Assembly (NCBI GenBank): GCA_049700355.1
Contig: JBNAVG010000003.1
Location: forward strand, 1-28,611
Reading direction: 5' to 3'
Origin: Candidatus Micrarchaeales archaeon
GTDB lineage: Archaea > Micrarchaeota > Micrarchaeia > Micrarchaeales > JBNAVG01
Length of the DNA stretch: 28,611 bases
A program made the translations under genes and the position numbers. This document shows, one piece after another, positions 14,031-28,611 of the stretch (within the stretch, counting starts at the first letter, position 1; every line of letters starts with the position of its first letter). The notes under the pieces were generated by a model, which was not told the origin of the DNA, searched no databases, and worked only from the letters and a program-made list of their open reading frames with translations.

Positions 14031-15326
14031 ATGTTTAAAAAATATCTTTTATTGTTGTTTTTTGGTTTATTAATCGCTTTTGAATTTCCAATGCAAGGAT
14101 TTAAAATTGGAAACCTAAGCCTTCAAATCAGCAGGAATAATTCTGTTTTGGTAACTTTTCCGAATGGTTCTAAAAAGGAAATTCCACAAAATCTTACAAT
14201 AGCAATTATAAGAAATTTTACAAAGAATTCAAATATTTCTACTATAACTCACTTAATCTTTCTTAATATTACAAATCAAAATATTCAAATAAACAAAGAA
14301 ATGGAAAAAATAAAAGAGATTTATAAACATTATGGAGGTAACGAGGCTAAGATAGAAGAGGAGTATATAAAAGAGTTATCCAACATCTCTTTACCAACAA
14401 ATGTTTCAATTGAAAAATTAGAAGAAGAGTTTAAGGAAAAACAAAAGGAAGTTTGGGGGAGGGTAGAGAGAAAGTTTATAAATCACTCATCTAATGAATA
14501 TTGGAAAAAACACAGGATATGCGTAGCGATTTATCCAAATTTAAAAGAATGCCCTCCAGAAGTGTTTCCTATCTTCATTAATCAAACTAAAAAATTAATG
14601 CTTCCAAATGGTTCTATAATTTCAGTGAACGAAACGATTTTTGTAAGAGGTTTAGGAAAAATAATTCCAAAAGAGGATGAGGTTGAGATAGAAAATGAGT
14701 CTACGCATTCATTTATAAAAGAAGTACACAATCGTCCAGTAGTAGTTACGATTACTAAAACACCTACAGGAGTAAATGTTATTGTAACAAACTTAATAAG
14801 CGGAGTAAGAAATGAAATTGAAGTTGAAAAAGAGGAGAATGTTTTTAAGCACATTGTTGTACATACAAAAGGAAACGTTTCAAACGTTATAGTAAACATA
14901 ACAAGGATTAAAAACATCACATTTCCACCAAAAGTACCAAAAGAGTTTTCAAAAGCTTTGTTTTATGAGATTAATAGTAATTTAAGCGATAGCGATATAA
15001 AGAACGTTACATTTACTGTTGTTGTTAATCAGACATGGCTTAATAAAGTGAATAGTAGCATAGGAAAGATTGGGGTTATTAGAATAAATGGCAATACATC
15101 ACAAGTTTTACAGATTCTAAACGTTACAACTCAAAAAATCGGAAATGAAACATTCTACTATTTAAAAGTTGTTTCTCCAGGATTTTCTTTGTATGTAGTA
15201 ACTCCTCTTATCACTCCAACTTCAAGCATATTTAATATAAATTCATTGATTATAGCAGGGATCGTATTCTTAATTATAGCGATTGTTACAATTGTTTTAT
15301 TAAAAAGGAGAAAGAAGAGCAAATAA
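14031..15326 (+). CDS. Cell-surface glycoprotein with PGF-pre-PGF domain and C-terminal membrane anchor
   Basis: Signal peptide MFKKYLLLLFFGLLIA. C-terminal domain FYEINSN...VTFTVVVNQTWL...VVSPGFSLYVV, then a TM helix and KRRKKSK. About 23 N-X-S/T sequons by manual count. Confidence 0.72.
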   Translation: MFKKYLLLLFFGLLIAFEFPMQGFKIGNLSLQISRNNSVLVTFPNGSKKEIPQNLTIAIIRNFTKNSNISTITHLIFLNITNQNIQINKEMEKIKEIYKHYGGNEAKIEEEYIKELSNISLPTNVSIEKLEEEFKEKQKEVWGRVERKFINHSSNEYWKKHRICVAIYPNLKECPPEVFPIFINQTKKLMLPNGSIISVNETIFVRGLGKIIPKEDEVEIENESTHSFIKEVHNRPVVVTITKTPTGVNVIVTNLISGVRNEIEVEKEENVFKHIVVHTKGNVSNVIVNITRIKNITFPPKVPKEFSKALFYEINSNLSDSDIKNVTFTVVVNQTWLNKVNSSIGKIGVIRINGNTSQVLQILNVTTQKIGNETFYYLKVVSPGFSLYVVTPLITPTSSIFNINSLIIAGIVFLIIAIVTIVLLKRRKKSK

Positions 15327-19776: not shown

Positions 19777-20517
19777 ATGCCAAATGTTCTTAAAACTACC
19801 TTCTCTGCTTATTTCAAAAATCTAAAACAAATTTTATTCTTTTCATTTGCTTTTTTAATAACTTTTTCGATTCCAATTTTTGCTGGAATGCCAACTTATT
19901 TAGCCTTAGGTGGAATATTCTTAAGAAGCGGTGGAATATTTCTTACTGTAACTTTAAAAGATATAACAATAATAATCCTATCGATGTTCCTTTCCTTATT
20001 TTTTCTTAGCATTGGGATAGTAGCTATAAACCTATTAATAAAGGCTCAAAAAGCATATACAAAAACTAGTAAATCAAAACTTGCAGAGTTTTCTATCTAT
20101 ACATTTAAAGTCTTCTTAATCTTTTCAATCTTTTCTATTTTACAGTTTCTTTTTAGTTTAATTGGTTATCTTTACAATATTCAAGAATTTGTATACTTGG
20201 CTCTTTTTATTTTTTCCCTTTTTATTTTCTATGCCCCAGCCGGAATTGTGATAGATGAGTTTAGTATTTTCAGTTCTTTGATCTATAGCTTTAAATTTAT
20301 TTTTAAAAAACCACAATACTTTTTAATTTGGTTGATCTTTGGAAGTTTGAGTATTATCCTAGTAACATTTATTTCTTCAGCCTTTCAAGGATTTATATTT
20401 AACTTCCCGATCGGGGAGTTTTTAGCCCTTTCCATAAATTCATTTTTTGTAGCACCATTGCTCATTATTTTACAGGCCGAAAGCTTTTTAAGAAAATATC
20501 CTTTATTCAAAAAATAA
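19777..20517 (+). CDS. Hypothetical polytopic membrane protein (about 6 TM)
   Basis: 246 aa, Phe/Ile/Leu-rich, with alternating TM and short basic loops. No family motif I can name with confidence. Confidence 0.75.
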   Translation: MPNVLKTTFSAYFKNLKQILFFSFAFLITFSIPIFAGMPTYLALGGIFLRSGGIFLTVTLKDITIIILSMFLSLFFLSIGIVAINLLIKAQKAYTKTSKSKLAEFSIYTFKVFLIFSIFSILQFLFSLIGYLYNIQEFVYLALFIFSLFIFYAPAGIVIDEFSIFSSLIYSFKFIFKKPQYFLIWLIFGSLSIILVTFISSAFQGFIFNFPIGEFLALSINSFFVAPLLIILQAESFLRKYPLFKK

Positions 20518-20548: not shown

Positions 20549-22195
20549 ATGAAAAAGTTTCTTTTATTCTTATCTTTATTAATGCTTGTTACGGCTCAGA
20601 CACAACAGCAACCAGCATCCTGTATTGTATTCCGTACTGGCATTACCTATTTTTATTCTGACCAAAAGTGTAGCAGCGATTCAGTTTTATTTACTTGTAG
20701 CTATCAACCTCCATCTGATATTGGAAATCTTTATGGAGAATGTTTAAGTATTTCCAACCCAATTTGTGAAGATGCATTTAAAGTATGCTCTGCTCAACAG
20801 ACACAAAAACCACAATCAGTAAAATTTTTATCTGGTCTTTCAACAACTGGAATCGGTAATGAGCAACCATTTGTAATAGCAGTTTTTTATAGTACTACAG
20901 ATTGTAATACTCCAATTTCTGTAGCTTTTGTAAATATACCAATTGGAAAAGCTCAAAACATTCCTGGTGGGCAAATATGTGAGACTGGAGTATGCTACTC
21001 AAGTGATACAGCTTGTTTTCAAGAAGCTACCAAGCAAGTTAGTGGTGGAGGAGAGAAGCGGATTAATTTTTGTTCTCAGTCTGCTGTTCCTCTGCAATTT
21101 CAATCTCTTTCTTTGTTAGCATTGCTTTTTACTTTTACTCTTCTTGGACTTTTGTATTCTATTGGTGAGATTACTTCATCTTCTTCAATTAAAGCATTTG
21201 TAAAATCAGAATATTTCGAAGGAATAAAAAGTATTATTCTATTTGTAGGAATTTTTTCTATATTAGCTACGATGAATTCTTTGCTTCTTCCATTAACTGG
21301 AGAAAAAGATTTAATAAATGGTGCATGTAATAAAGCACTGGAAATAAAAGGTACTCCTACTACTGGTGGAATAGAAAAAATTCAACAGGAAGTGTTTAAT
21401 TATGCATTCCAACTTGGTGTTTTTGCTCCTTTAACACTATCTTTTGGTTTTGGTATAAATCTTGGTAAAATATTAGGAGTATCTATAAACTCGATGGGTA
21501 CCTTTCTTCCTTCAAGTATAATTGAATGGGCCTATCCTCCAACAAAATTTACACTTATAAACTATGTGATTAATGATGTAGTTTATGGTATAGAAAACTC
21601 TTTTCTGATTGCTATCGCTAGAGTAGCTATTTTAACTTTAACCCCTATATTCGTGTATCAATTTTTACTTCCTGTTGGTTTACTTTTTAGGGGTTTTCCG
21701 ATTTTGAGGAAAATAGGAGGTTTCTTTATAGCTTTAAGCATAGGGCTTTTAATTATCTACCCTTCCCTTGTTTTATTTTTTGATTATCCATTTCTAAAAA
21801 CTGTAATAAACGCAGTTCAACCAACTTCACCTATTTTACAACAAATTTCCCAACTTTCTCTTCCAATAGAAGTAAACTTACCAATATTTGGAAAAGTAAA
21901 GATAAATATACTTTCTATTTTCTTACCTTTCCTTGTAAGCTCAATACCAGCTTCTATAATTAGTATTATATCCATTGTTGATATTGGAGCTGTTCTTTTT
22001 CCATCTATTATTTCTTTATACTTACCATTAAATTATTTCCTTTCTGCAGTTAGCGTAAATTTGGCTCAAATGGTTGTAGTTTTTATAGACCTTCTTATAA
22101 TGTATACTTTAATACTTGATTTGAGTGATATTATAGGAGGAAAGTTTAAAATTGCTGGAAGGGAGGTGCAAGGTTTTGGTTTCCTTAAGCTTTAG
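20549..22195 (+). CDS. Membrane paralog 1 of 6 (putative CedA/VirB6-like) with N-terminal Cys-rich extracellular domain
   Basis: Signal peptide, 11 Cys in roughly the first 175 aa. Motif A: LLYSIGEITSSSSIKAFVKSEYFEGIKS. Motif B: LPVGLLFRGFPILRKIGGFFIALSIGLLIIYP. Confidence 0.8.
   Translation: MKKFLLFLSLLMLVTAQTQQQPASCIVFRTGITYFYSDQKCSSDSVLFTCSYQPPSDIGNLYGECLSISNPICEDAFKVCSAQQTQKPQSVKFLSGLSTTGIGNEQPFVIAVFYSTTDCNTPISVAFVNIPIGKAQNIPGGQICETGVCYSSDTACFQEATKQVSGGGEKRINFCSQSAVPLQFQSLSLLALLFTFTLLGLLYSIGEITSSSSIKAFVKSEYFEGIKSIILFVGIFSILATMNSLLLPLTGEKDLINGACNKALEIKGTPTTGGIEKIQQEVFNYAFQLGVFAPLTLSFGFGINLGKILGVSINSMGTFLPSSIIEWAYPPTKFTLINYVINDVVYGIENSFLIAIARVAILTLTPIFVYQFLLPVGLLFRGFPILRKIGGFFIALSIGLLIIYPSLVLFFDYPFLKTVINAVQPTSPILQQISQLSLPIEVNLPIFGKVKINILSIFLPFLVSSIPASIISIISIVDIGAVLFPSIISLYLPLNYFLSAVSVNLAQMVVVFIDLLIMYTLILDLSDIIGGKFKIAGREVQGFGFLKL
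22162..22168 (+). promoter_or_regulatory. Shine-Dalgarno GGAGGTG inside the paralog 1 3' end, serving paralog 2
   Basis: Perfect archaeal SD 7 nt before an in-frame TTG at 22176. Confidence 0.5.
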
Positions 22196-23180
22196 TTTTT
22201 TGATTCTCCAAAATTATTGCAATTTTGGTAGTGAGTATGTTTCTGGATGGGCGCCAGTTTCACTTTTAGTTATTCTAACTGTAATTACAGTTCTTTCCTT
22301 ACTTTATTCTTTATCCCCATTTTTAGGTGTTTATGGAAGGAAGTTAAAGATCCAATTAAAAGAGGAATTTGTGCAAGCTGTAATTTCAATCTTTTTAATT
22401 TCATCGATCTTTGTAATACTCAAACTTTTTTGTGACATCTCATCAGGTGACCCATTTCAACAAAGTGAAGGTTTTCTTCAGCGATTACTCATTAAAGGAA
22501 TAAACCTTTATGTAGAAGGTTACCTTTATGAGGTTAGATTCTTAATTCTAGGAACACTATTTGAAAATGTGCCACCTCTTCAGGTTGGTCTTCAATCTGG
22601 TGGGCTAGCTTGTGGCGGAGTAACTTCAACTCCTTTTATTAATCTTTTAGTAACCGTAGATACTATAATTAATGGTTTTATAACGATTTCATATGCTTCA
22701 ATTTATTTTATTCTTTTGGTTTTAGCCTTTGCAAGGGAATATGCGTTTAGCGTTATACTTCCGATTGGAATTATTTGTAGAGTCATCCCTCAAACAAGAA
22801 GAGCCGCAGATTTCTTTATAGCTTTGAGCATAGGTTTATATATATTCCTTCCAGCAATATTATTGATGAATGATTCTCTTGTACAACAAATTAAGCCACA
22901 ACAAATAGAGACTCCTCCAGCAGCAAAAGATTTAGTTTCTTATCTTTCTTCTTTTCAGTATATATCAAATACCCTTCTAGTTTCAGCTATAAATATTTTT
23001 AAGGTAGGTGATTTTTCAAATTTTATAAGAGAAGTAGCTTGGTATTATTTCTTTGCAGTATTTATGCTTGGAATAGATATATCACTTCTAACAACATTTG
23101 TAGAAACTCTTGGCAATGCGTTGAGTATAGGTTTTGGATCTTTATCAACTAGAATGAGGGAAGCATATGCACCAGGTTAG
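22176..23180 (+). CDS. Membrane paralog 2 of 6 (putative CedA/VirB6-like)
   Basis: The ORF track opens at 22152; the SD favours TTG 22176. Motif A: LLYSLSPFLG...LKIQLKEEFVQAVIS. Motif B: LPIGIICRVIPQTRRAADFFIALSIGLYIFLP. Confidence 0.8.
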   Translation: MVSLSFSFLILQNYCNFGSEYVSGWAPVSLLVILTVITVLSLLYSLSPFLGVYGRKLKIQLKEEFVQAVISIFLISSIFVILKLFCDISSGDPFQQSEGFLQRLLIKGINLYVEGYLYEVRFLILGTLFENVPPLQVGLQSGGLACGGVTSTPFINLLVTVDTIINGFITISYASIYFILLVLAFAREYAFSVILPIGIICRVIPQTRRAADFFIALSIGLYIFLPAILLMNDSLVQQIKPQQIETPPAAKDLVSYLSSFQYISNTLLVSAINIFKVGDFSNFIREVAWYYFFAVFMLGIDISLLTTFVETLGNALSIGFGSLSTRMREAYAPG

Positions 23181-24579
23181 ACCAATGTACCTTTTATTTT
23201 TAGTTTTTCTTATAAATTTTGTTTATTCTAATTCATATTTCTTTTTGCTACAAGTAACATACGAAAAAACAATTAATCAATGGTTGCCATTGATTTTAAT
23301 TGCTGGAATTCTTGCTTTAGGTATAGTTGGAATTGTCTATGCGATTGCTTCAGCGTTTAACATAGAAAAATTAAAAACTTACGCTTCTTCCGAAATCCCT
23401 CAGGTTATAGCAACAATTTTATTTGCTTCTATAATTGTTATAATTTTAAAATTTGGTTCTATGTTGCTTATCAGTTATGAAAATTCAATTTTGCCACAAG
23501 AAAGTTTACAAAAAGTTTGTGAGAACATAAAAAACGCTCATTCATCACTTAACTTTTTTACTCCAAGCAATACTGCTGCATATGGGTTGGATGCGATTTA
23601 TGGATTTGCAAATACTGGGGATGAAGGGACCCCTTCTATATGTGATACAGTTTCAAATCCAAGTGGAAGGGAGCCATACTATTTTTTAGCAAGTTCAGAA
23701 ATAATTTTGTTAAACAATACTGTTAGACTTATTAATTTTTCAAATTCAATTTATGTTTTGCATACTGTTCTTTCCTTCTTTAAAGAACTGAAGAATGAAA
23801 TAGATATCAACCCAGTAGCTACTATTTCATTCTCACCATATGCTGGATTTGATCCTTTGGCAAGTGCGGTAAAAGGAATAGAAGCAGATATAATTGGTTA
23901 TATTTCATTCAATTTTATTTCTATAACACTTTTATTTTTTATTTATAGATATTGGGTTACAATTTTAATTGCAGGAATTTTACTTAGAACTTTCTCATTT
24001 ACTAGAAAACTCGGTGGTTTCTTAATAGCTTTTGTAATCTCTACTATTTTTATAACTCCATTAATTTACTTTCTTACTTACTCAGTTATTACAAAAACTT
24101 GGATTACTCCTCTTTCAATGAACCCAGACCCTTCTATAAAACCAGTATGCCCACAAGTACAACAAAATCCAACACCACCTGAAAACCTTCCACCTGGTTA
24201 TGGGTATTATACAACTACAATTTCCCCTTCCTCTCCATATACCACTTCGTTAGCCTATCAAGGGTTTTGTGGTTGTTTTTGGCAACCTTATAATCAGAAT
24301 ATTTTATTTTGGGAAGTGAAGCAATTCTTTTTAAACCTAGGTTCTGCTTTGCTTACACTTCCATCTGTTACGGTTTTTGAGGGTTATTCATGTAATATAG
24401 ATACAGCAACTGCATACGTTACTTTTCTTGGCTCTTCGGAATTTATGGGAAAGTTAGCTGTTGAGACTTATCTCTTTCCACTTATAAGTTTTTTTGTTAC
24501 TTTGGCTAATATTATAGGACTTTCATGGCTTTTTGGTGGTACAACAAGAATATTTGGTATTGAAAAATTGGTGGGATGA
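23167..24579 (+). CDS. Membrane paralog 3 of 6 (putative CedA/VirB6-like) with Pro/Cys-rich insert after motif B
   Basis: Motif A: IVYAIASAFNIEKLKTYASSEIPQVIAT. Motif B: IAGILLRTFSFTRKLGGFLIAFVISTIFITP. Overlaps paralog 2 by 14 nt. Confidence 0.8.
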   Translation: MHQVRPMYLLFLVFLINFVYSNSYFFLLQVTYEKTINQWLPLILIAGILALGIVGIVYAIASAFNIEKLKTYASSEIPQVIATILFASIIVIILKFGSMLLISYENSILPQESLQKVCENIKNAHSSLNFFTPSNTAAYGLDAIYGFANTGDEGTPSICDTVSNPSGREPYYFLASSEIILLNNTVRLINFSNSIYVLHTVLSFFKELKNEIDINPVATISFSPYAGFDPLASAVKGIEADIIGYISFNFISITLLFFIYRYWVTILIAGILLRTFSFTRKLGGFLIAFVISTIFITPLIYFLTYSVITKTWITPLSMNPDPSIKPVCPQVQQNPTPPENLPPGYGYYTTTISPSSPYTTSLAYQGFCGCFWQPYNQNILFWEVKQFFLNLGSALLTLPSVTVFEGYSCNIDTATAYVTFLGSSEFMGKLAVETYLFPLISFFVTLANIIGLSWLFGGTTRIFGIEKLVG

Positions 24580-25823
24580 TGAAAAAGCTACTTATCTTTT
24601 TTATTTTTGTTTTAAGCTCTTTATACGCTACTTCTTCAATCGAGTGTAACGTTTGTTATTTTCCTAGACCTTTATCATGCCCAAGCGAATGTTCTACTCT
24701 AGTTCCATGTTCAGCACCTTCTGGGAGTGGTTATGAGTGTGTAAATTATAAAGGAGTTTCTTACTCTTTAATTACTGAAAATACAATACAAATAAACTTC
24801 TATTCCACAAATACTTGCGAGCCTTCTTCACTTCAATTATCCCAAGAAATAAGCGTTTCTTCCTATTCTTCTTCCTGTGATCCAAATAAATGTTATGATA
24901 TCTCCACCTCTTGTGGCCAACAGCTATTGCAATTAATTCAGAGTTTTCCAGCTAAAGAAATAAAAGTTTTACTTCCAAAGGATATAATTACAATCTCATT
25001 GTTAATAATCTTTGTAGAAGTTTCAGCTTTGGGCATAGTATATACTTTAGGAAAAGCATTTTCTTATGAAAAGTTAGTAACTTATTCAAAAGGTGAACTT
25101 ACGCAAGCACTTGCAAATATAATCCTCATTGGCATAATTTTTTCACTTCTTTTAACTATGGATATTTATAAAATATTTCAAACTCTTGATTTACAACTTA
25201 ACAAACTTGCTTCGGATATAACAAGCTATGCATTTTTGCCATTTTTATGGAATACTATAATGTCAGTAGTTGAAAGTTTATCATTTAGTATAGAATTTTC
25301 CATTCCAATTTCTATCGTTACAGTTAATATAGGTGTATATAATGTTCAACCATTGGATGGAATTGCACCTTTCCTTGATGCTGTTGATAGAATCCTTTCT
25401 TATTTCTCTTTATCCTATATTTTTATTATTGCTACAAGAGTATTCTTTATTTTCATAGAAACCATGCTCCCTATACTTCTCTATTTGGGGCTTCTGCTTA
25501 GAATAATTCCTTGGACAAGAAGCGCCGGTGGTTACTTAATTGCTTTCTTTATTTCTTTTTATTTCTTTTATCCATTGCTCCTTTGGTCTTTCCTTTCTTT
25601 ACAACCATTTAGTCTAATAACTTTTTATTCACCATATAACTATTTTAATTTTTGGTATCCAGATGTTACCAACCTTGAAAATTTTGCTGTAGATGTTGTA
25701 ACAACAATAATAAATATATTGCCCCTTATACTATGTTTTATAGTGTCATTAATGGTAGTTGAAGAGTTTGGTATGCTCCTTGGATCTTTTCTTACAAGAC
25801 CAAGTTTATTTAGGCTGATATGA
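24576..25823 (+). CDS. Membrane paralog 4 of 6 (putative CedA/VirB6-like) with N-terminal Cys-rich domain
   Basis: Signal peptide, 10 Cys in about the first 113 aa. Motif A: IVYTLGKAFSYEKLVTYSKGELTQALAN. Motif B: YLGLLLRIIPWTRSAGGYLIAFFISFYFFYP. ATGA overlap with paralog 3. Confidence 0.8.
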   Translation: MMKKLLIFFIFVLSSLYATSSIECNVCYFPRPLSCPSECSTLVPCSAPSGSGYECVNYKGVSYSLITENTIQINFYSTNTCEPSSLQLSQEISVSSYSSSCDPNKCYDISTSCGQQLLQLIQSFPAKEIKVLLPKDIITISLLIIFVEVSALGIVYTLGKAFSYEKLVTYSKGELTQALANIILIGIIFSLLLTMDIYKIFQTLDLQLNKLASDITSYAFLPFLWNTIMSVVESLSFSIEFSIPISIVTVNIGVYNVQPLDGIAPFLDAVDRILSYFSLSYIFIIATRVFFIFIETMLPILLYLGLLLRIIPWTRSAGGYLIAFFISFYFFYPLLLWSFLSLQPFSLITFYSPYNYFNFWYPDVTNLENFAVDVVTTIINILPLILCFIVSLMVVEEFGMLLGSFLTRPSLFRLI

Positions 25824-26965
25824 TGAAAAAAGTATTGCTTTCATTATTACTTTTAACCTTTGTCTTTGCACAAACAGATAATTCTTATTCTACTATAAAC
25901 AAAGGGATTCAAACATTAAAAGAGAGTTATCCTTTCATTATGCTAATAATTCTTTTTACTTTTGTTTTAAGTGTTTTCATTTATTCTATCGGAAAATTTC
26001 TAAATATGGGATCCATAAAAAGTTGGGCTAAGGATCAAATTTACGAATCCTTTCTTTCTTTATTTATAGGAGTTTTTGTAGTGTTTTTACTTGAGAATTT
26101 CTTTTTAAATCAAAATTTTGGTGGTCTATTAACCTCTTATGGTTTGTTACCTCAGGCATGTAAGAGTGAAACTAACCTATTCGGTATAGGAGAATGTGAA
26201 CTTAACGAGTTCTTTAAAAACATAGATAACCTTCTTTGGAACATTTTTGCTTACGATTTGCTTTTTTCTGTGCTTGGTACATGTGGACTTAGTTTTGAAT
26301 TTTCGATTCCTCCTTCTCCTGCTCCCCCCATTCTAAAAATTGGAATAGGTACAAGCCTTCTTTCACCTTTAATGACGGACCTAAGTGATTTTCTTAGCGA
26401 GGGATATTACATTTTACTGGTAGCTTATCTTTTAAATTTCTTCCAGTTTTACCTTATACAAATCGCCCCATACTTCTTTTTATACTTCTTTCCAATTGGA
26501 GTAGTTTTAAGAAGTTTTAGTTTAACAAGAAAAGTAGGCGGGAGCATAATAGCGATTTCTTTAGGAATTTCAATACTCTACCCTATATTAGTTGCAATTG
26601 GTTATGGCTACATACTTTCTGCTTTTCAATTTAATATACCCTCATCTATATTAAGTTTCACTTCAGTAGGAGGTACTTTTATCGCCAGTATTCTCTCATG
26701 GATTTATTCTTATTCTGGGAAAAGTATAATAGGAATTTTATCCCTTTTTATCTTTATTGGAAGTTTAATTCCTAGCCTTATCAGTTTAGTAACTTTTGTA
26801 TTCCCTATTTTATTCGGTTCTATCACTACTCTAGCCCCTGTTATAATAGGTCTTTTAATTGTACCATATATTATATTTGATGTCATCGAAAACTTTATTA
26901 GAGGACTCTCAAGCCAAATAGGACAAGAGGTGAGTGTGCTTGGTGCGATTGGAAGAATTTTGTAA
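25820..26965 (+). CDS. Membrane paralog 5 of 6 (putative CedA/VirB6-like)
   Basis: Signal peptide MMKKVLLSLLLLTFVFA. Motif A: FIYSIGKFLNMGSIKSWAKDQIYESFLS. Motif B: FPIGVVLRSFSLTRKVGGSIIAISLGISILYP. ATGA overlap with paralog 4. Confidence 0.8.
   Translation: MMKKVLLSLLLLTFVFAQTDNSYSTINKGIQTLKESYPFIMLIILFTFVLSVFIYSIGKFLNMGSIKSWAKDQIYESFLSLFIGVFVVFLLENFFLNQNFGGLLTSYGLLPQACKSETNLFGIGECELNEFFKNIDNLLWNIFAYDLLFSVLGTCGLSFEFSIPPSPAPPILKIGIGTSLLSPLMTDLSDFLSEGYYILLVAYLLNFFQFYLIQIAPYFFLYFFPIGVVLRSFSLTRKVGGSIIAISLGISILYPILVAIGYGYILSAFQFNIPSSILSFTSVGGTFIASILSWIYSYSGKSIIGILSLFIFIGSLIPSLISLVTFVFPILFGSITTLAPVIIGLLIVPYIIFDVIENFIRGLSSQIGQEVSVLGAIGRIL
26927..26933 (+). promoter_or_regulatory. Shine-Dalgarno GAGGTGA inside the paralog 5 3' end, serving paralog 6
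   Basis: 6 nt before an in-frame TTG at 26940 (9 nt before GTG 26943). Confidence 0.45.
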
Positions 26966-28151
26966 ATTAAAATTATTCCTTTTATTTTTTCTAATTTTTG
27001 TAAGTAAAGTATATGCTCAAGAAGTGCTGAATCTTCCACGTTGGTATCTAAAACAATATGATGAAGAAATAAAAGGGATATGGAAGGAGTACCAACCCAT
27101 TGCATTAATAGCAGTTTTACTTTCATTTACAGTAGCTTCTTTACTTTATAGTTTTGGTTTTATCCTACAAAACGATAGATTAAAAAATTATGCAATGGCT
27201 GAATTTTTAGAAGCAGTTGCAAGCCTTCTTATGGTAATTTTATTTGTCGTTTTACTCCAAATATTAGCCTCCACCTTTTTCCCAGTAGTTACACAAGGAG
27301 CAACCCCAGAACAAAAGCAAATTGTTGAAATCGGACCTTTTGCTTACTTGGATGCAAAGCTAAATTTAATTCAACAAGTTTCAAATAAAACATATACTGC
27401 TACAATTAACTTACTTTACATTTTAAATTTTATAAGCTCTGTAAAAATAAGTACTCCAACTCTTGAAAAAAATTCTGTTCCAGAACTTCTTTTTAACGCT
27501 AATTCTATTCTAGGGAAATTTGGGTTTATTTATACAAGTAGATTAGCTCCTATTATGAATACGTTTATTGCAGCTTTAACAGAAATTGGGGAGTATATTT
27601 ATAGTGGTCTGAAAGCTTTAAGTTTTCAAAGAGCCCTCCTTAAATTTTTTGCAGAGTCCTCAATAACGGTTTTTCTTCCTCTTGGAGTAGTGCTGAGGAT
27701 TTTTCCGCCAACGAGAGGAGCCGGTGGCATGCTTATTGCTATGGCTTTTAGCTTTTTCTTTATTTTCCCTTTTGTTTATCTTGTTTTTTACCTGCCCTCG
27801 GGTTCAAATAGCTTTGCTTCTATTTTACTTTCAAACTTACAAAAAATAAACTCCAAGCTCGACGAGATTAATTCCGATAAGATATTAGCATTTATAAAAG
27901 TTAGCACAAATAGTGGAGCACTTGCAATTTTTACAACTTTTGTTTACTCTATAAAATTAATTTTGGACCTTTTAAGCAGTTCAACTCTCTTAAATTTATT
28001 CATTTCATTTTATCCTACTTATTTATTTGCCACAAGCATAATTCCTGTAATTGCAGGAGCGCTTGCATTAACCTTTATGACTACTCTCTCTGACCTTTTT
28101 GGTGAGAATGCAGTTAAATATGGGCAAAGGTTAATAGGAAGGATAATATAA
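26940..28151 (+). CDS. Membrane paralog 6 of 6 (putative CedA/VirB6-like)
   Basis: The ORF track opens at 26934. Motif A: LLYSFGFILQNDRLKNYAMAEFLEAVAS. Motif B: LPLGVVLRIFPPTRGAGGMLIAMAFSFFFIFP. Confidence 0.8.
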   Translation: MVRLEEFCKLKLFLLFFLIFVSKVYAQEVLNLPRWYLKQYDEEIKGIWKEYQPIALIAVLLSFTVASLLYSFGFILQNDRLKNYAMAEFLEAVASLLMVILFVVLLQILASTFFPVVTQGATPEQKQIVEIGPFAYLDAKLNLIQQVSNKTYTATINLLYILNFISSVKISTPTLEKNSVPELLFNANSILGKFGFIYTSRLAPIMNTFIAALTEIGEYIYSGLKALSFQRALLKFFAESSITVFLPLGVVLRIFPPTRGAGGMLIAMAFSFFFIFPFVYLVFYLPSGSNSFASILLSNLQKINSKLDEINSDKILAFIKVSTNSGALAIFTTFVYSIKLILDLLSSSTLLNLFISFYPTYLFATSIIPVIAGALALTFMTTLSDLFGENAVKYGQRLIGRII

Positions 28152-28253: not shown

Positions 28254-28611
28254 ATGGAAATAAGAGAAATGCTTTTCTATTCTTTCCTTGGAATTTCATT
28301 TTTATTTAGTTTTCTTGTTTTTGGTTTTTTGCTTTATATGCCAAACTTCTTAAAATTTTTTTTGATCTTACTTTCTGGAATTTTTGCATACTTTGCATAT
28401 TTCCTATTTAAATTTGATTACATTGCTATACCCCTTTTAACTCAAAAAAGTAAAAGGGTTAAAACTGGTGCTCAAAGATATTGGTTTTCCCCAACAGGTG
28501 ATGTATTGGTCACAAAAATCGGAAATATATTCTATGCATCTATATTCTTAAGAATTCACTCCTATTCCTCTTATACTGAAAAAAATGATGAGGAAAAGGT
28601 TGAGTTTGTTA
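28254..28611 (+). CDS. Partial 2-TM membrane protein with soluble C-terminal domain (possible PrgI/VirB3-TrsE-like T4SS component); runs off the right edge
   Basis: Translated by hand, not in the ORF track: MEIREMLFYSFLGISFLFSFLVFGFLLYMPNFLKFFLILLSGIFAYFAYFLFKFDYIAIPLLTQKSKRVKTGAQRYWFSPTGDVLVTKIGNIFYASIFLRIHSYSSYTEKNDEEKVEFV, 119 codons with no stop. The ORF is well supported; the function is inferred. Confidence 0.7.
   Translation, partial: MEIREMLFYSFLGISFLFSFLVFGFLLYMPNFLKFFLILLSGIFAYFAYFLFKFDYIAIPLLTQKSKRVKTGAQRYWFSPTGDVLVTKIGNIFYASIFLRIHSYSSYTEKNDEEKVEFV

Follow-up and report, generated by a model that had tools for sequence, protein, structure and literature searches.

Known systems and the Micrarchaeales locus

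Two archaeal machines related to type IV secretion systems (T4SSs) have been described, namely the Ced system of Sulfolobales (CedA/CedE, CedA1 and CedB/CedD) and the Ted system of Thermoproteales (TedA, TedC and TedB) (PMC9905601, PMC11868833). Both are defined by the triad of a pilin, a VirB6-like protein and a VirB4-like protein (PMC9905601). Comparable bacterial systems include the VirB6/TrbL proteins (Pfam PF04610), among them TrwI of R388, an inner-membrane subunit at the base of the translocation channel (PDB 7o3v and 8rt9); the rvh T4SS of Rickettsiales with its four to five tandem VirB6-like paralogs (PMC2653234); and the mating-pair formation class FATA (MPF-FATA) T4SSs of monoderms and Patescibacteria (PrgI/VirB3, PrgH/VirB6 and VirB4; PMC12102498). 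Here we describe an array of six related membrane-protein genes in a Candidatus Micrarchaeales archaeon (assembly GCA_049700355.1). The array lies on contig JBNAVG010000003.1, which was analysed over its whole length of 28,611 bp and is referred to below as the window; it is contig C3 of an 83%-complete genome of 0.62 Mb.

The reading that we favour, with a probability of roughly 0.72, is that the six genes are fixed, anciently duplicated paralogs of the VirB6/CedA/TedA type which provide the channel or platform of a chromosomal, domesticated T4SS-derived machine conserved across Micrarchaeota. It draws on five observations, namely the paralogy of the six genes, their conserved gene order, their linkage to an ATPase gene, their remote similarity to known proteins by hidden Markov model (HMM) and by fold, and their phylum-wide distribution. 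In this genome the module consists of a 246-aa membrane protein, the six paralogs, two adaptor proteins with two transmembrane (TM) helices each, a 503-aa ATPase and two small proteins.

As in Ced and Ted, this would be a chromosomal archaeal machine derived from a T4SS without a relaxase or outer-membrane parts. It shares with them a polytopic VirB6-like protein, whose N-terminal hairpin may here too resemble the pilin (hhalign probability 55% in our comparison), and an ATPase of the CedB/VirB4/HerA group. A further feature shared with Ced is that the VirB6-like protein has a paralog there too (CedA and CedE in Saccharolobus), and a second may be the spread of VirB4 N-domain function over two proteins (CedB and CedD in Ced). 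The differences lie in copy number, architecture and host. Six fixed paralogs are found in one operon and a seventh elsewhere, whereas Ced and Ted have one or two. The paralogs are 342-548 aa long compared with the 259 positions of the CedA model, and they carry signal peptides and big variable ectodomains. The ATPase has neither a TM helix nor an N-domain, which are apparently supplied by two separate paralogous proteins with two TM helices each, and the pilin gene lies at another locus. Finally, the organism is a genome-reduced symbiont and not a free-living crenarchaeon.

Bacterial VirB6/TrbL gave the best structural match among solved chains and is also a polytopic membrane subunit encoded near a VirB4-type ATPase, although no sequence or profile similarity to it was detectable. 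TrwI is a homopentamer bound to VirB5, whereas no equivalents of VirB5, VirB8, VirB9 or VirB10 were recognised here. With the rvh system the locus shares a tandem expansion, large variable hydrophilic extensions and an obligately host-dependent organism of reduced genome. The rvh expansion is however independent and belongs to a diderm bacterium, its proteins are true PF04610 members of about 600-1,150 aa, and the remainder of the Rickettsiales machine is an almost complete VirB/D4 set, unlike the one described here. The MPF-FATA systems are similar in being simple with respect to the envelope, chromosomal in ultrasmall epibionts and without a relaxase, and in having a PrgI-like protein with two TM helices that adjoins a VirB4-like ATPase. 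Patescibacteria, on the other hand, have a full-length VirB4 and a single VirB6, and the ATPase described here is closest to the CedB and CedD models and not to bacterial VirB4 models.

The six-gene array

Six co-directional and closely packed open reading frames (ORFs) are found on the + strand at 20549-28151 in a mechanically generated ORF list (Table 1). Successive ORFs overlap by 44, 14, 4, 4 and 32 nt, although the true overlaps may be smaller than 44 and 32 nt as TTG and GTG starts were taken mechanically. Paralogs 2-6 are 23-29% identical to paralog 1 and can be aligned with it as homologues, and the profile of a 119-member family alignment scores each of the six copies at E 1e-47 to 1e-65. 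Two motifs are shared by the array. Invariant across the alignment of the six are the Y of motif A (Y-[ST]-h-G, followed by a basic residue and E/Q) and the residues G..R.....R......IA..........P of motif B (R-x-[FI]-[PS]-x-[TL]-R-x2-GG-x-hIA). Motif B was recovered by pattern in all six copies and motif A in five, with the sixth recognised by alignment. Variation is concentrated in the N-terminal ectodomains of paralogs 1 and 4 and in the loop between TM2 and TM3. The ectodomains of paralogs 1 and 4 (20549-21100 and 24576-25000) are partly alignable with each other, and the 12 and 11 cysteines given for these proteins are whole-protein counts.

These results agree with most of what a first-pass annotation of the stretch had described, namely six consecutive, overlapping + strand genes for paralogous membrane proteins with variable extracellular parts and with motifs A and B in every copy (AD replacing GG in paralog 2); it had also asked whether the six align as homologues, which they do. 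Its statement that all six end in a TM helix followed by a short Gly/basic tail holds for five of them but not for paralog 4, which stops earlier.

A profile built from the six copies and searched against 1.8 billion representative proteins reached 2743 clusters (at 50% identity), of which 1,578 had E values below 1e-10. The array is therefore not a chance arrangement and the family is both large and real. No Pfam match was found for the six copies (E<=1) or for 119 diverse family members, and the family profile returned nothing credible among PDB sequences. Public sources label the proteins as 'hypothetical', and a word-index homologue search with the family alignment gave 'hypothetical protein' only. 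Family members were detected in 95 of 101 sampled Micrarchaeota genomes, with about seven matches per genome in the order to which the window belongs and 12-15 in other orders of the same class. In many Micrarchaeia outside that order the 12-15 matches apparently represent two arrays (for example G039:C1:73695-81002 and G039:C3:13382-17878).

Conservation of gene order

A total of 50 genome contigs, nearly all from Micrarchaeota, encode orthologues of the ATPase that lies downstream of the array, with identities of 54-72%. Almost all of the related loci are titled Candidatus Micrarchaeota or Micrarchaeia, in agreement with the earlier suggestion of a DPANN archaeon. Three metagenome contigs of close relatives contain, in this order, genes for transcription factor B (TFB), the 246-aa membrane protein, the six paralogs, proteins of 265 and 275 aa and a 502-aa ATPase, and about 20 Micrarchaeota genomes showed the same gene order. 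In all cases with an adjacent array and some 10 kb of upstream sequence, six family genes preceded the adaptors and the ATPase, some array copies being split by apparent frameshifts in a few assemblies. Elsewhere, the array was found at another place or on the opposite strand in other genomes.

A maximum-likelihood (ML) tree was obtained by a quick search for 78 array proteins from 13 genomes together with ten seventh copies. Each array position formed its own clade, with support by the Shimodaira-Hasegawa-like approximate likelihood ratio test (SH-aLRT) of 92-99, and the clade of the seventh copies was supported at 100. As each position forms a clade of its own, the duplications predate the divergence of these lineages and the order has not changed afterwards. 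Sequence identity between close relatives is about 90% for the ATPase and about 45-55% for the paralogs.

In the divergent hot-spring Micrarchaeia L046-L049, L051 and L059, a single adaptor was found and no six-gene array was present within 10 kb. Instead, the 273-aa adaptor gene of these contigs is preceded, at a distance of about 500-1,000 bp, by genes for proteins of 129-187 aa with two to three TM helices, which match the family profile weakly (E 8e-4 to 1e-2). This arrangement may be reduced or ancestral.

Similarity to CedA, CedE and VirB6

The NCBIfam models matched by the largest numbers of the 119 family members were CedE (four members, best 1.2e-5) and CedA (four members, best 1.6e-4) (CedA and CedE models: NF041796, NF053657). 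In a six-frame search, the CedA model matched 33 of the 101 Micrarchaeota genomes at E<=0.01 (best 1.5e-6), and of 14 control genomes Sulfolobus acidocaldarius alone was matched. The six best CedA matches correspond to the motif-B segment (TM3, basic loop and TM4) of genes to which the family profile assigns E values of 1e-44 to 1e-77, with CedA model positions of about 105-200 aligning to motif B. At the level of HMMs the resemblance of motif B to CedA is thus real in relatives, though remote.

A structural model of paralog 5 was calculated with AlphaFold2 from a 119-sequence alignment, with a mean predicted local distance difference test (pLDDT) score of 82.2 and a predicted template modelling (pTM) score of 0.75; a single-sequence model (pLDDT 51) was discarded in its favour. 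Among 48,161 solved chains, the best match was TrwI/VirB6 of R388 (7o3v_F; 226 of 261 residues, model residues 23-377) with a Z of 9.0, a value which by the tool's own note lies within the chance range for helical models. In the same comparison DotA of the Legionella T4SS gave a Z of 8.0 and a chain of the Aeropyrum CedA1 pilin (8dfu_B) a Z of 6.8 on model residues 22-109. Clusters of the AlphaFold Database (AFDB) found outside the family itself included TrbL/VirB6 (E 1.5e-2), 'type IV secretion system protein' and A0A7C2LFF1, the last being one of three clusters used to gather archaeal CedA/CedE/VirB6 homologues (PMC11868833). A Foldseek search of the Swiss-Prot part of AFDB gave no significant match, and an ESM Atlas shape search returned the family alone. 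The weak Swiss-Prot matches were headed by Rickettsia proteins of 1,150 aa, which we take to be rvhB6 paralogs, and also included PtlD.

Adaptors and ATPase downstream of the array

The last 55 nt of the window (28557-28611) are the same as the first 55 nt of contig C23, and the reading frame from 28254 continues across the join. The order on C23 is the remainder of a 264-aa protein, its 275-aa paralog and the 503-aa ATPase. The join is supported by close relatives, which show this gene order, and full-length orthologues of the 264-aa protein occur at the same position in relatives. The contigs of relatives L006 and L007 also break in the neighbouring 275-aa gene, which points to assembly difficulties that recur at this pair of paralogous adaptor genes.

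The 264-aa and 275-aa adaptors are paralogs (hhalign 99.2%, E 2e-19), each with two N-terminal TM helices and, after them, some 200 aa of soluble domain. Neither matched any Pfam family or PDB sequence, and profile searches of PDB sequences gave nothing credible. The ESM Atlas neighbours of the 275-aa protein are clusters with PrgI, PrgI_like and 'archaeal TraC-like' domains, and by predicted structure this protein lies near the N-terminal parts of VirB4/TraC and HerA-family ATPases and near VirB4_TrbE_N (template modelling scores of 0.47-0.53).

The 503-aa ATPase matches the Pfam families DUF87 (65.2 bits; cut-off 23.2), AAA_10 (51.4; 27.5) and P-loop_TraG (36.0; 25.8). Its best NCBIfam models are CedB (2.5e-22), CedD and the VirB4-like CD1110 and Mbov_0397, all of which rank above HerA, with scores that are all far under the equivalog cut-offs. 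Its PDB sequence matches are led by HerA-type proteins and include the VirB4 C-terminal domain 4ag5. As the protein aligns solely to positions 251-548 of the CedB model, it lacks the membrane anchor and the N-domain. We infer that VirB4 has here been split three ways, into two membrane adaptors resembling VirB3 and the VirB4 N-domain and a separate motor domain, an arrangement comparable to the proposal that CedB and CedD together form a VirB4-like N-domain (PMC11868833). A complex prediction for the soluble parts of the adaptors and the ATPase, made with the orthologues of relative L008, scored 0.81 with a control at 0.63 and argues neither for nor against binding. A linked ATPase of the VirB4/CedB/HerA type, which the first-pass annotation had anticipated in the flanking DNA, is thus present on C23, separated from the array by the two adaptor genes, and relatives have it in the corresponding position.

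The 96-aa soluble protein encoded after the ATPase (contig C23, L005:2876-3181) and the C-terminal 100 or so residues of the ATPase (L005:1351-2862) match mutually (phmmer 8e-5 and 9e-6). Both the small protein and the C-terminal extension contain apparent short helical repeats of the form 'LG-x-[DS]-x-E-[RK]-[VI]'.

A second locus with a pilin-like gene and a seventh paralog

A seventh family member of 353 aa is encoded on contig C10 in a compact T4SS-like locus with its neighbours on the same strand (Table 1). A small protein of this locus matches Pfam T4SS_pilin (PF18895, 1.6e-4, slightly below the cut-off) and, when read from an internal Met, consists of a signal peptide and a two-helix hairpin. 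A 265-aa protein is a homologue of the adaptors (hhalign 98.5%). Of 61 genomes of the order, 55 encode the pilin, and in every case with listed coordinates for both genes (at least eight genomes) it adjoins the seventh paralog. The triad of pilin, VirB6-like and VirB4-like proteins that defines the Ced and Ted systems (PMC9905601) is the one found on C10. A small pilin with two TM helices, of the kind that the first-pass annotation proposed to seek in the flanking DNA, does exist in the genome, but at this separate locus and not in the flank of the array.

When a 30-sequence profile of the pilin was compared with the family profile, its hairpin aligned with motif A at an hhalign E of 1.2e-4 but with a probability of only 55%. 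One ESM Atlas look-alike cluster carries Pfam CedA1 in 23% of its members. The hhalign alignment echoes the reported homology of the CedA N-terminus to the CedA1 pilin (PMC9905601), without being conclusive here.

Genomic setting

The window contains genes for TFB, RNA polymerase subunits, a proteasome subunit, FttA/aCPSF1, an eRF1-like protein and the beta subunit of phenylalanyl-tRNA synthetase (PheRS), and its G+C content is even at 29-37%. No Pfam family is matched by the 431-aa ORF at 14031-15326 (+), which lies between the genes for the Rpo5-like protein and FttA. Orthologues of the 246-aa gene at the head of the cluster are found directly upstream of the six-gene array in eight relatives (L006, L008, L010, L016, L025, L032, L056 and L061). 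In one close relative, a gene for an rve-type integrase/transposase lies between TFB and the cluster (L008:2910-3800 and L009:2910-3800); it is absent from the window.

Four genes are conserved downstream in relatives; their products are a 98-aa protein, a protein of about 130 aa that combines a zinc ribbon with two TM helices, a 237-aa protein and a single-pass protein of about 745 aa. In this genome, the genes for the 237-aa protein, the protein of about 745 aa and a giant protein (>1,400 aa) are on contig C26 (L070:203-7718), while in relatives they directly follow the ATPase module; C23 continues instead with TRM5, TrkA-N and CBS genes. An ESM Atlas search with the 749-aa protein of this genome, the orthologue of the 745-aa protein of L008, found nothing.

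Table 1. Genes of the array, its flanks and the second locus; positions are those of the window unless a contig is named
Feature	Position	Strand	Length (aa)	Description	Family profile E	Clade SH-aLRT
Polytopic membrane protein at cluster head	19777..20517	+	246	Family not assigned; no credible Pfam match		
Paralog 1	20549..22195	+	548	Signal peptide; Cys-rich N-terminal ectodomain (12 Cys); VirB6/CedA-like membrane core	5e-53	92 (position 1)
Paralog 2	22152..23180	+	342 (TTG start)	Motif B with AD for GG	1.5e-47	99 (position 2)
Paralog 3	23167..24579	+	470	Long extracellular insert between TM2 and TM3; second insert after TM4	7e-59	99 (position 3)
Paralog 4	24576..25823	+	415	Cys-rich N-terminal ectodomain (11 Cys); no C-terminal Gly/basic tail	3.5e-55	97 (position 4)
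Paralog 5	25820..26965	+	381	Copy chosen for the structure model		99 (position 5)
Paralog 6	26934..28151	+	405 (GTG start)		8e-65	93 (position 6)
5' part of first adaptor	28254..28611	+	264 (whole protein)	Two TM helices; VirB4-N-domain-like soluble part (PrgI/VirB3-like module); remainder on C23		
Compact T4SS-like locus	Contig C10, L069:4545-8106	-		T4SS_pilin-like protein, seventh paralog, adaptor homologue, 311-aa DUF87 ATPase, 173-aa ORF		

Weighing the favoured reading and its alternatives

A number of results weigh against the assignment of the family to VirB6/CedA-type proteins of a T4SS-derived machine. The six copies of the window have no CedA or CedE match even at E<=10, and the best CedA score in any genome (26 bits) does not approach the curated cut-off of 330; with scores so far under the curated Ced cut-offs, the family members are not Ced orthologues. 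No match to Pfam TrbL/VirB6 (PF04610) was found in the six copies, the 119 members or the whole genome at E<=10, and hhalign gave a probability of 0.4% between the family and a 28-sequence alignment of Agrobacterium-type VirB6. Foldseek returned nothing below E 0.1 from the PDB, the TrwI chains appearing at E 0.5-3. As helical models can reach a Z such as that of TrwI by chance and the Foldseek search of the PDB was null, the fold evidence is supportive and not decisive. The similarity of the family to all named families is remote, which limits our confidence. The array locus itself contains no pilin gene, and the pilin hairpin aligns with motif A at the modest probability given above. The join of the window to C23 is based on the 55-nt overlap and synteny, without a spanning read, and public runs holding the locus are hot-spring metagenome DNA only, with no RNA run among them. 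Neither the window nor C23 contains a relaxase, coupling protein or integrase.

The first-pass proposal of a Ced/T4SS-like channel locus is supported with respect to homologues, ATPase and fold and to motif B in relatives, but not as regards a match of the six copies to the CedA model or to Pfam or Agrobacterium-type VirB6; its view that both motifs resemble CedA likewise applies to motif B at the HMM level in relatives but not to the copies of the window, which miss the model. It had named a fold belonging to an unrelated family as evidence to the contrary, and no such family was matched, the best solved structure being VirB6 (TrwI) with DotA and the CedA1 pilin also listed. ABC permease, S-layer protein and type IV pilus platform were rejected as candidates as they had no family or fold support.

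The six proteins could be VirB6/CedA-like subunits of a T4SS-like machine without forming one hetero-oligomer, serving instead as alternative or specialised channel or adhesin subunits for different hosts, substrates or states, a role of the kind proposed for the tandem VirB6 copies of Rickettsiales, of which there are four to five. Their ectodomains differ greatly in length and Cys content, the low identity of the paralogs beside that of the ATPase in close relatives is as expected for surface parts under diversifying pressure, and with 12-15 copies in other orders of the class the number is not strictly six. The order and one-to-one orthology of the six positions across 13 genomes speak against this alternative, and no intact array with fewer than six copies was observed where the flank was complete. 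As positions, order and orthology are all constant, obligatory and non-redundant subunits fit better than interchangeable variants, and we consider the explanation by specialised subunits unlikely, though worth keeping in mind.

The family might also be unrelated to T4SSs, with the likeness being convergent helical-bundle noise and the true role lying, for example, in membrane remodelling, envelope biogenesis or chromosome handling with a HerA-type ATPase. Fold scores in the helical chance range and the lack of profile similarity to proteobacterial VirB6 would be consistent with this, as would the matches of the ATPase to HerA models and, at the head of its PDB list, to HerA-type proteins, and a faint CdvB_HTH mark on the conserved downstream 237-aa protein in one relative. 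We regard such a coincidence as very improbable, given four independent lines of evidence that agree, namely that the CedA/CedE HMM matches are specific, the best families of the ATPase are CedB, CedD and VirB4-like, the adaptors resemble PrgI and the VirB4 N-domain, and a T4SS_pilin-like gene adjoins the seventh paralog. Still less credible is that the cluster serves an integrated conjugative element as its transfer module and is not a machine of the host. Such elements are typified by the combination of VirB4-like ATPases, VirB6-like proteins and VirB2-like pilins, and an rve-type transposase gene stands beside the cluster in one relative. On the other hand, several relatives have the cluster at a constant place beside the genes for TFB, the proteasome and FttA, the family is carried by 95 of the 101 Micrarchaeota genomes, the phylogeny is congruent between array positions, G+C is even across the window, and the genes for a relaxase, coupling protein and integrase are missing from both contigs. 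A mobile conjugative element was rejected on the basis of the core synteny and the absence of a relaxase.

Proposed mechanism

Under the favoured reading of a domesticated, T4SS-derived machine with six VirB6/CedA-type subunits, the ATPase would be tethered to the membrane through the two adaptors and would power assembly of, or translocation through, a channel of the VirB6-like proteins, while the rapidly diverging ectodomains of the paralogs would face the envelope or a partner cell. That the parts form one complex is something we infer, as are its stoichiometry, cargo and direction of transport. Ced imports DNA in Sulfolobales, and Patescibacteria depend on T4SS genes for epibiotic growth; by analogy, the role of the machine is likely to be contact-dependent uptake or exchange of macromolecules. 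DNA would be the leading candidate for the cargo and import the best-precedented direction, as in Ced; since no relaxase, coupling protein or DNA-processing gene is linked, the argument for DNA is one of analogy.

A hetero-hexameric ring is an attractive idea because six fixed orthogroups would match a hexameric motor. The six orthologues could then form a 1:1:1:1:1:1 pseudo-sixfold VirB6-like ring that fits a hexameric VirB4-like motor, in contrast to the homopentameric VirB6 of R388. It would act, on the side of the symbiont, as the gate of a conduit between host and symbiont through which host DNA, nucleotides or other material is imported. Cryo-electron tomography of the cultured Micrarchaeon Microcaldus variisymbioticus ARM-1 is reported to show an unidentified structure at which host nanotubes dock (PMC11329633), and such a ring might, for example, be part of it. 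This specific arrangement is speculative and we think it rather improbable.

Significance

In our literature search, no paper was found that joins Micrarchaeota with VirB6, VirB4 or Ced components or that describes such a system in DPANN archaea, which agrees with the earlier statement that no description of the six-paralog locus was known. The locus is thus apparently unpublished, although Ced/Ted/T4SS-derived in kind.

Most building blocks cannot be made by DPANN archaea such as Micrarchaeota themselves, which take material from their hosts. If the favoured reading is correct, a near-universal, chromosomally fixed machine derived from conjugation would be present in these cells, in which the six VirB6-like subunits would not be interchangeable and VirB4 would be divided between a motor protein and a pair of membrane adaptors, an unusual build. 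It would be a candidate for how Micrarchaeota cells exchange material with other cells, and it provides a concrete set of about ten genes for study in existing co-cultures. Domesticated T4SSs of the Ced/Ted type, known from Thermoproteota, would moreover be found to reach into DPANN, and the machine would provide an archaeal parallel both to the VirB6 expansion of Rickettsiales and to the T4SS genes that Patescibacteria need for epibiotic growth.

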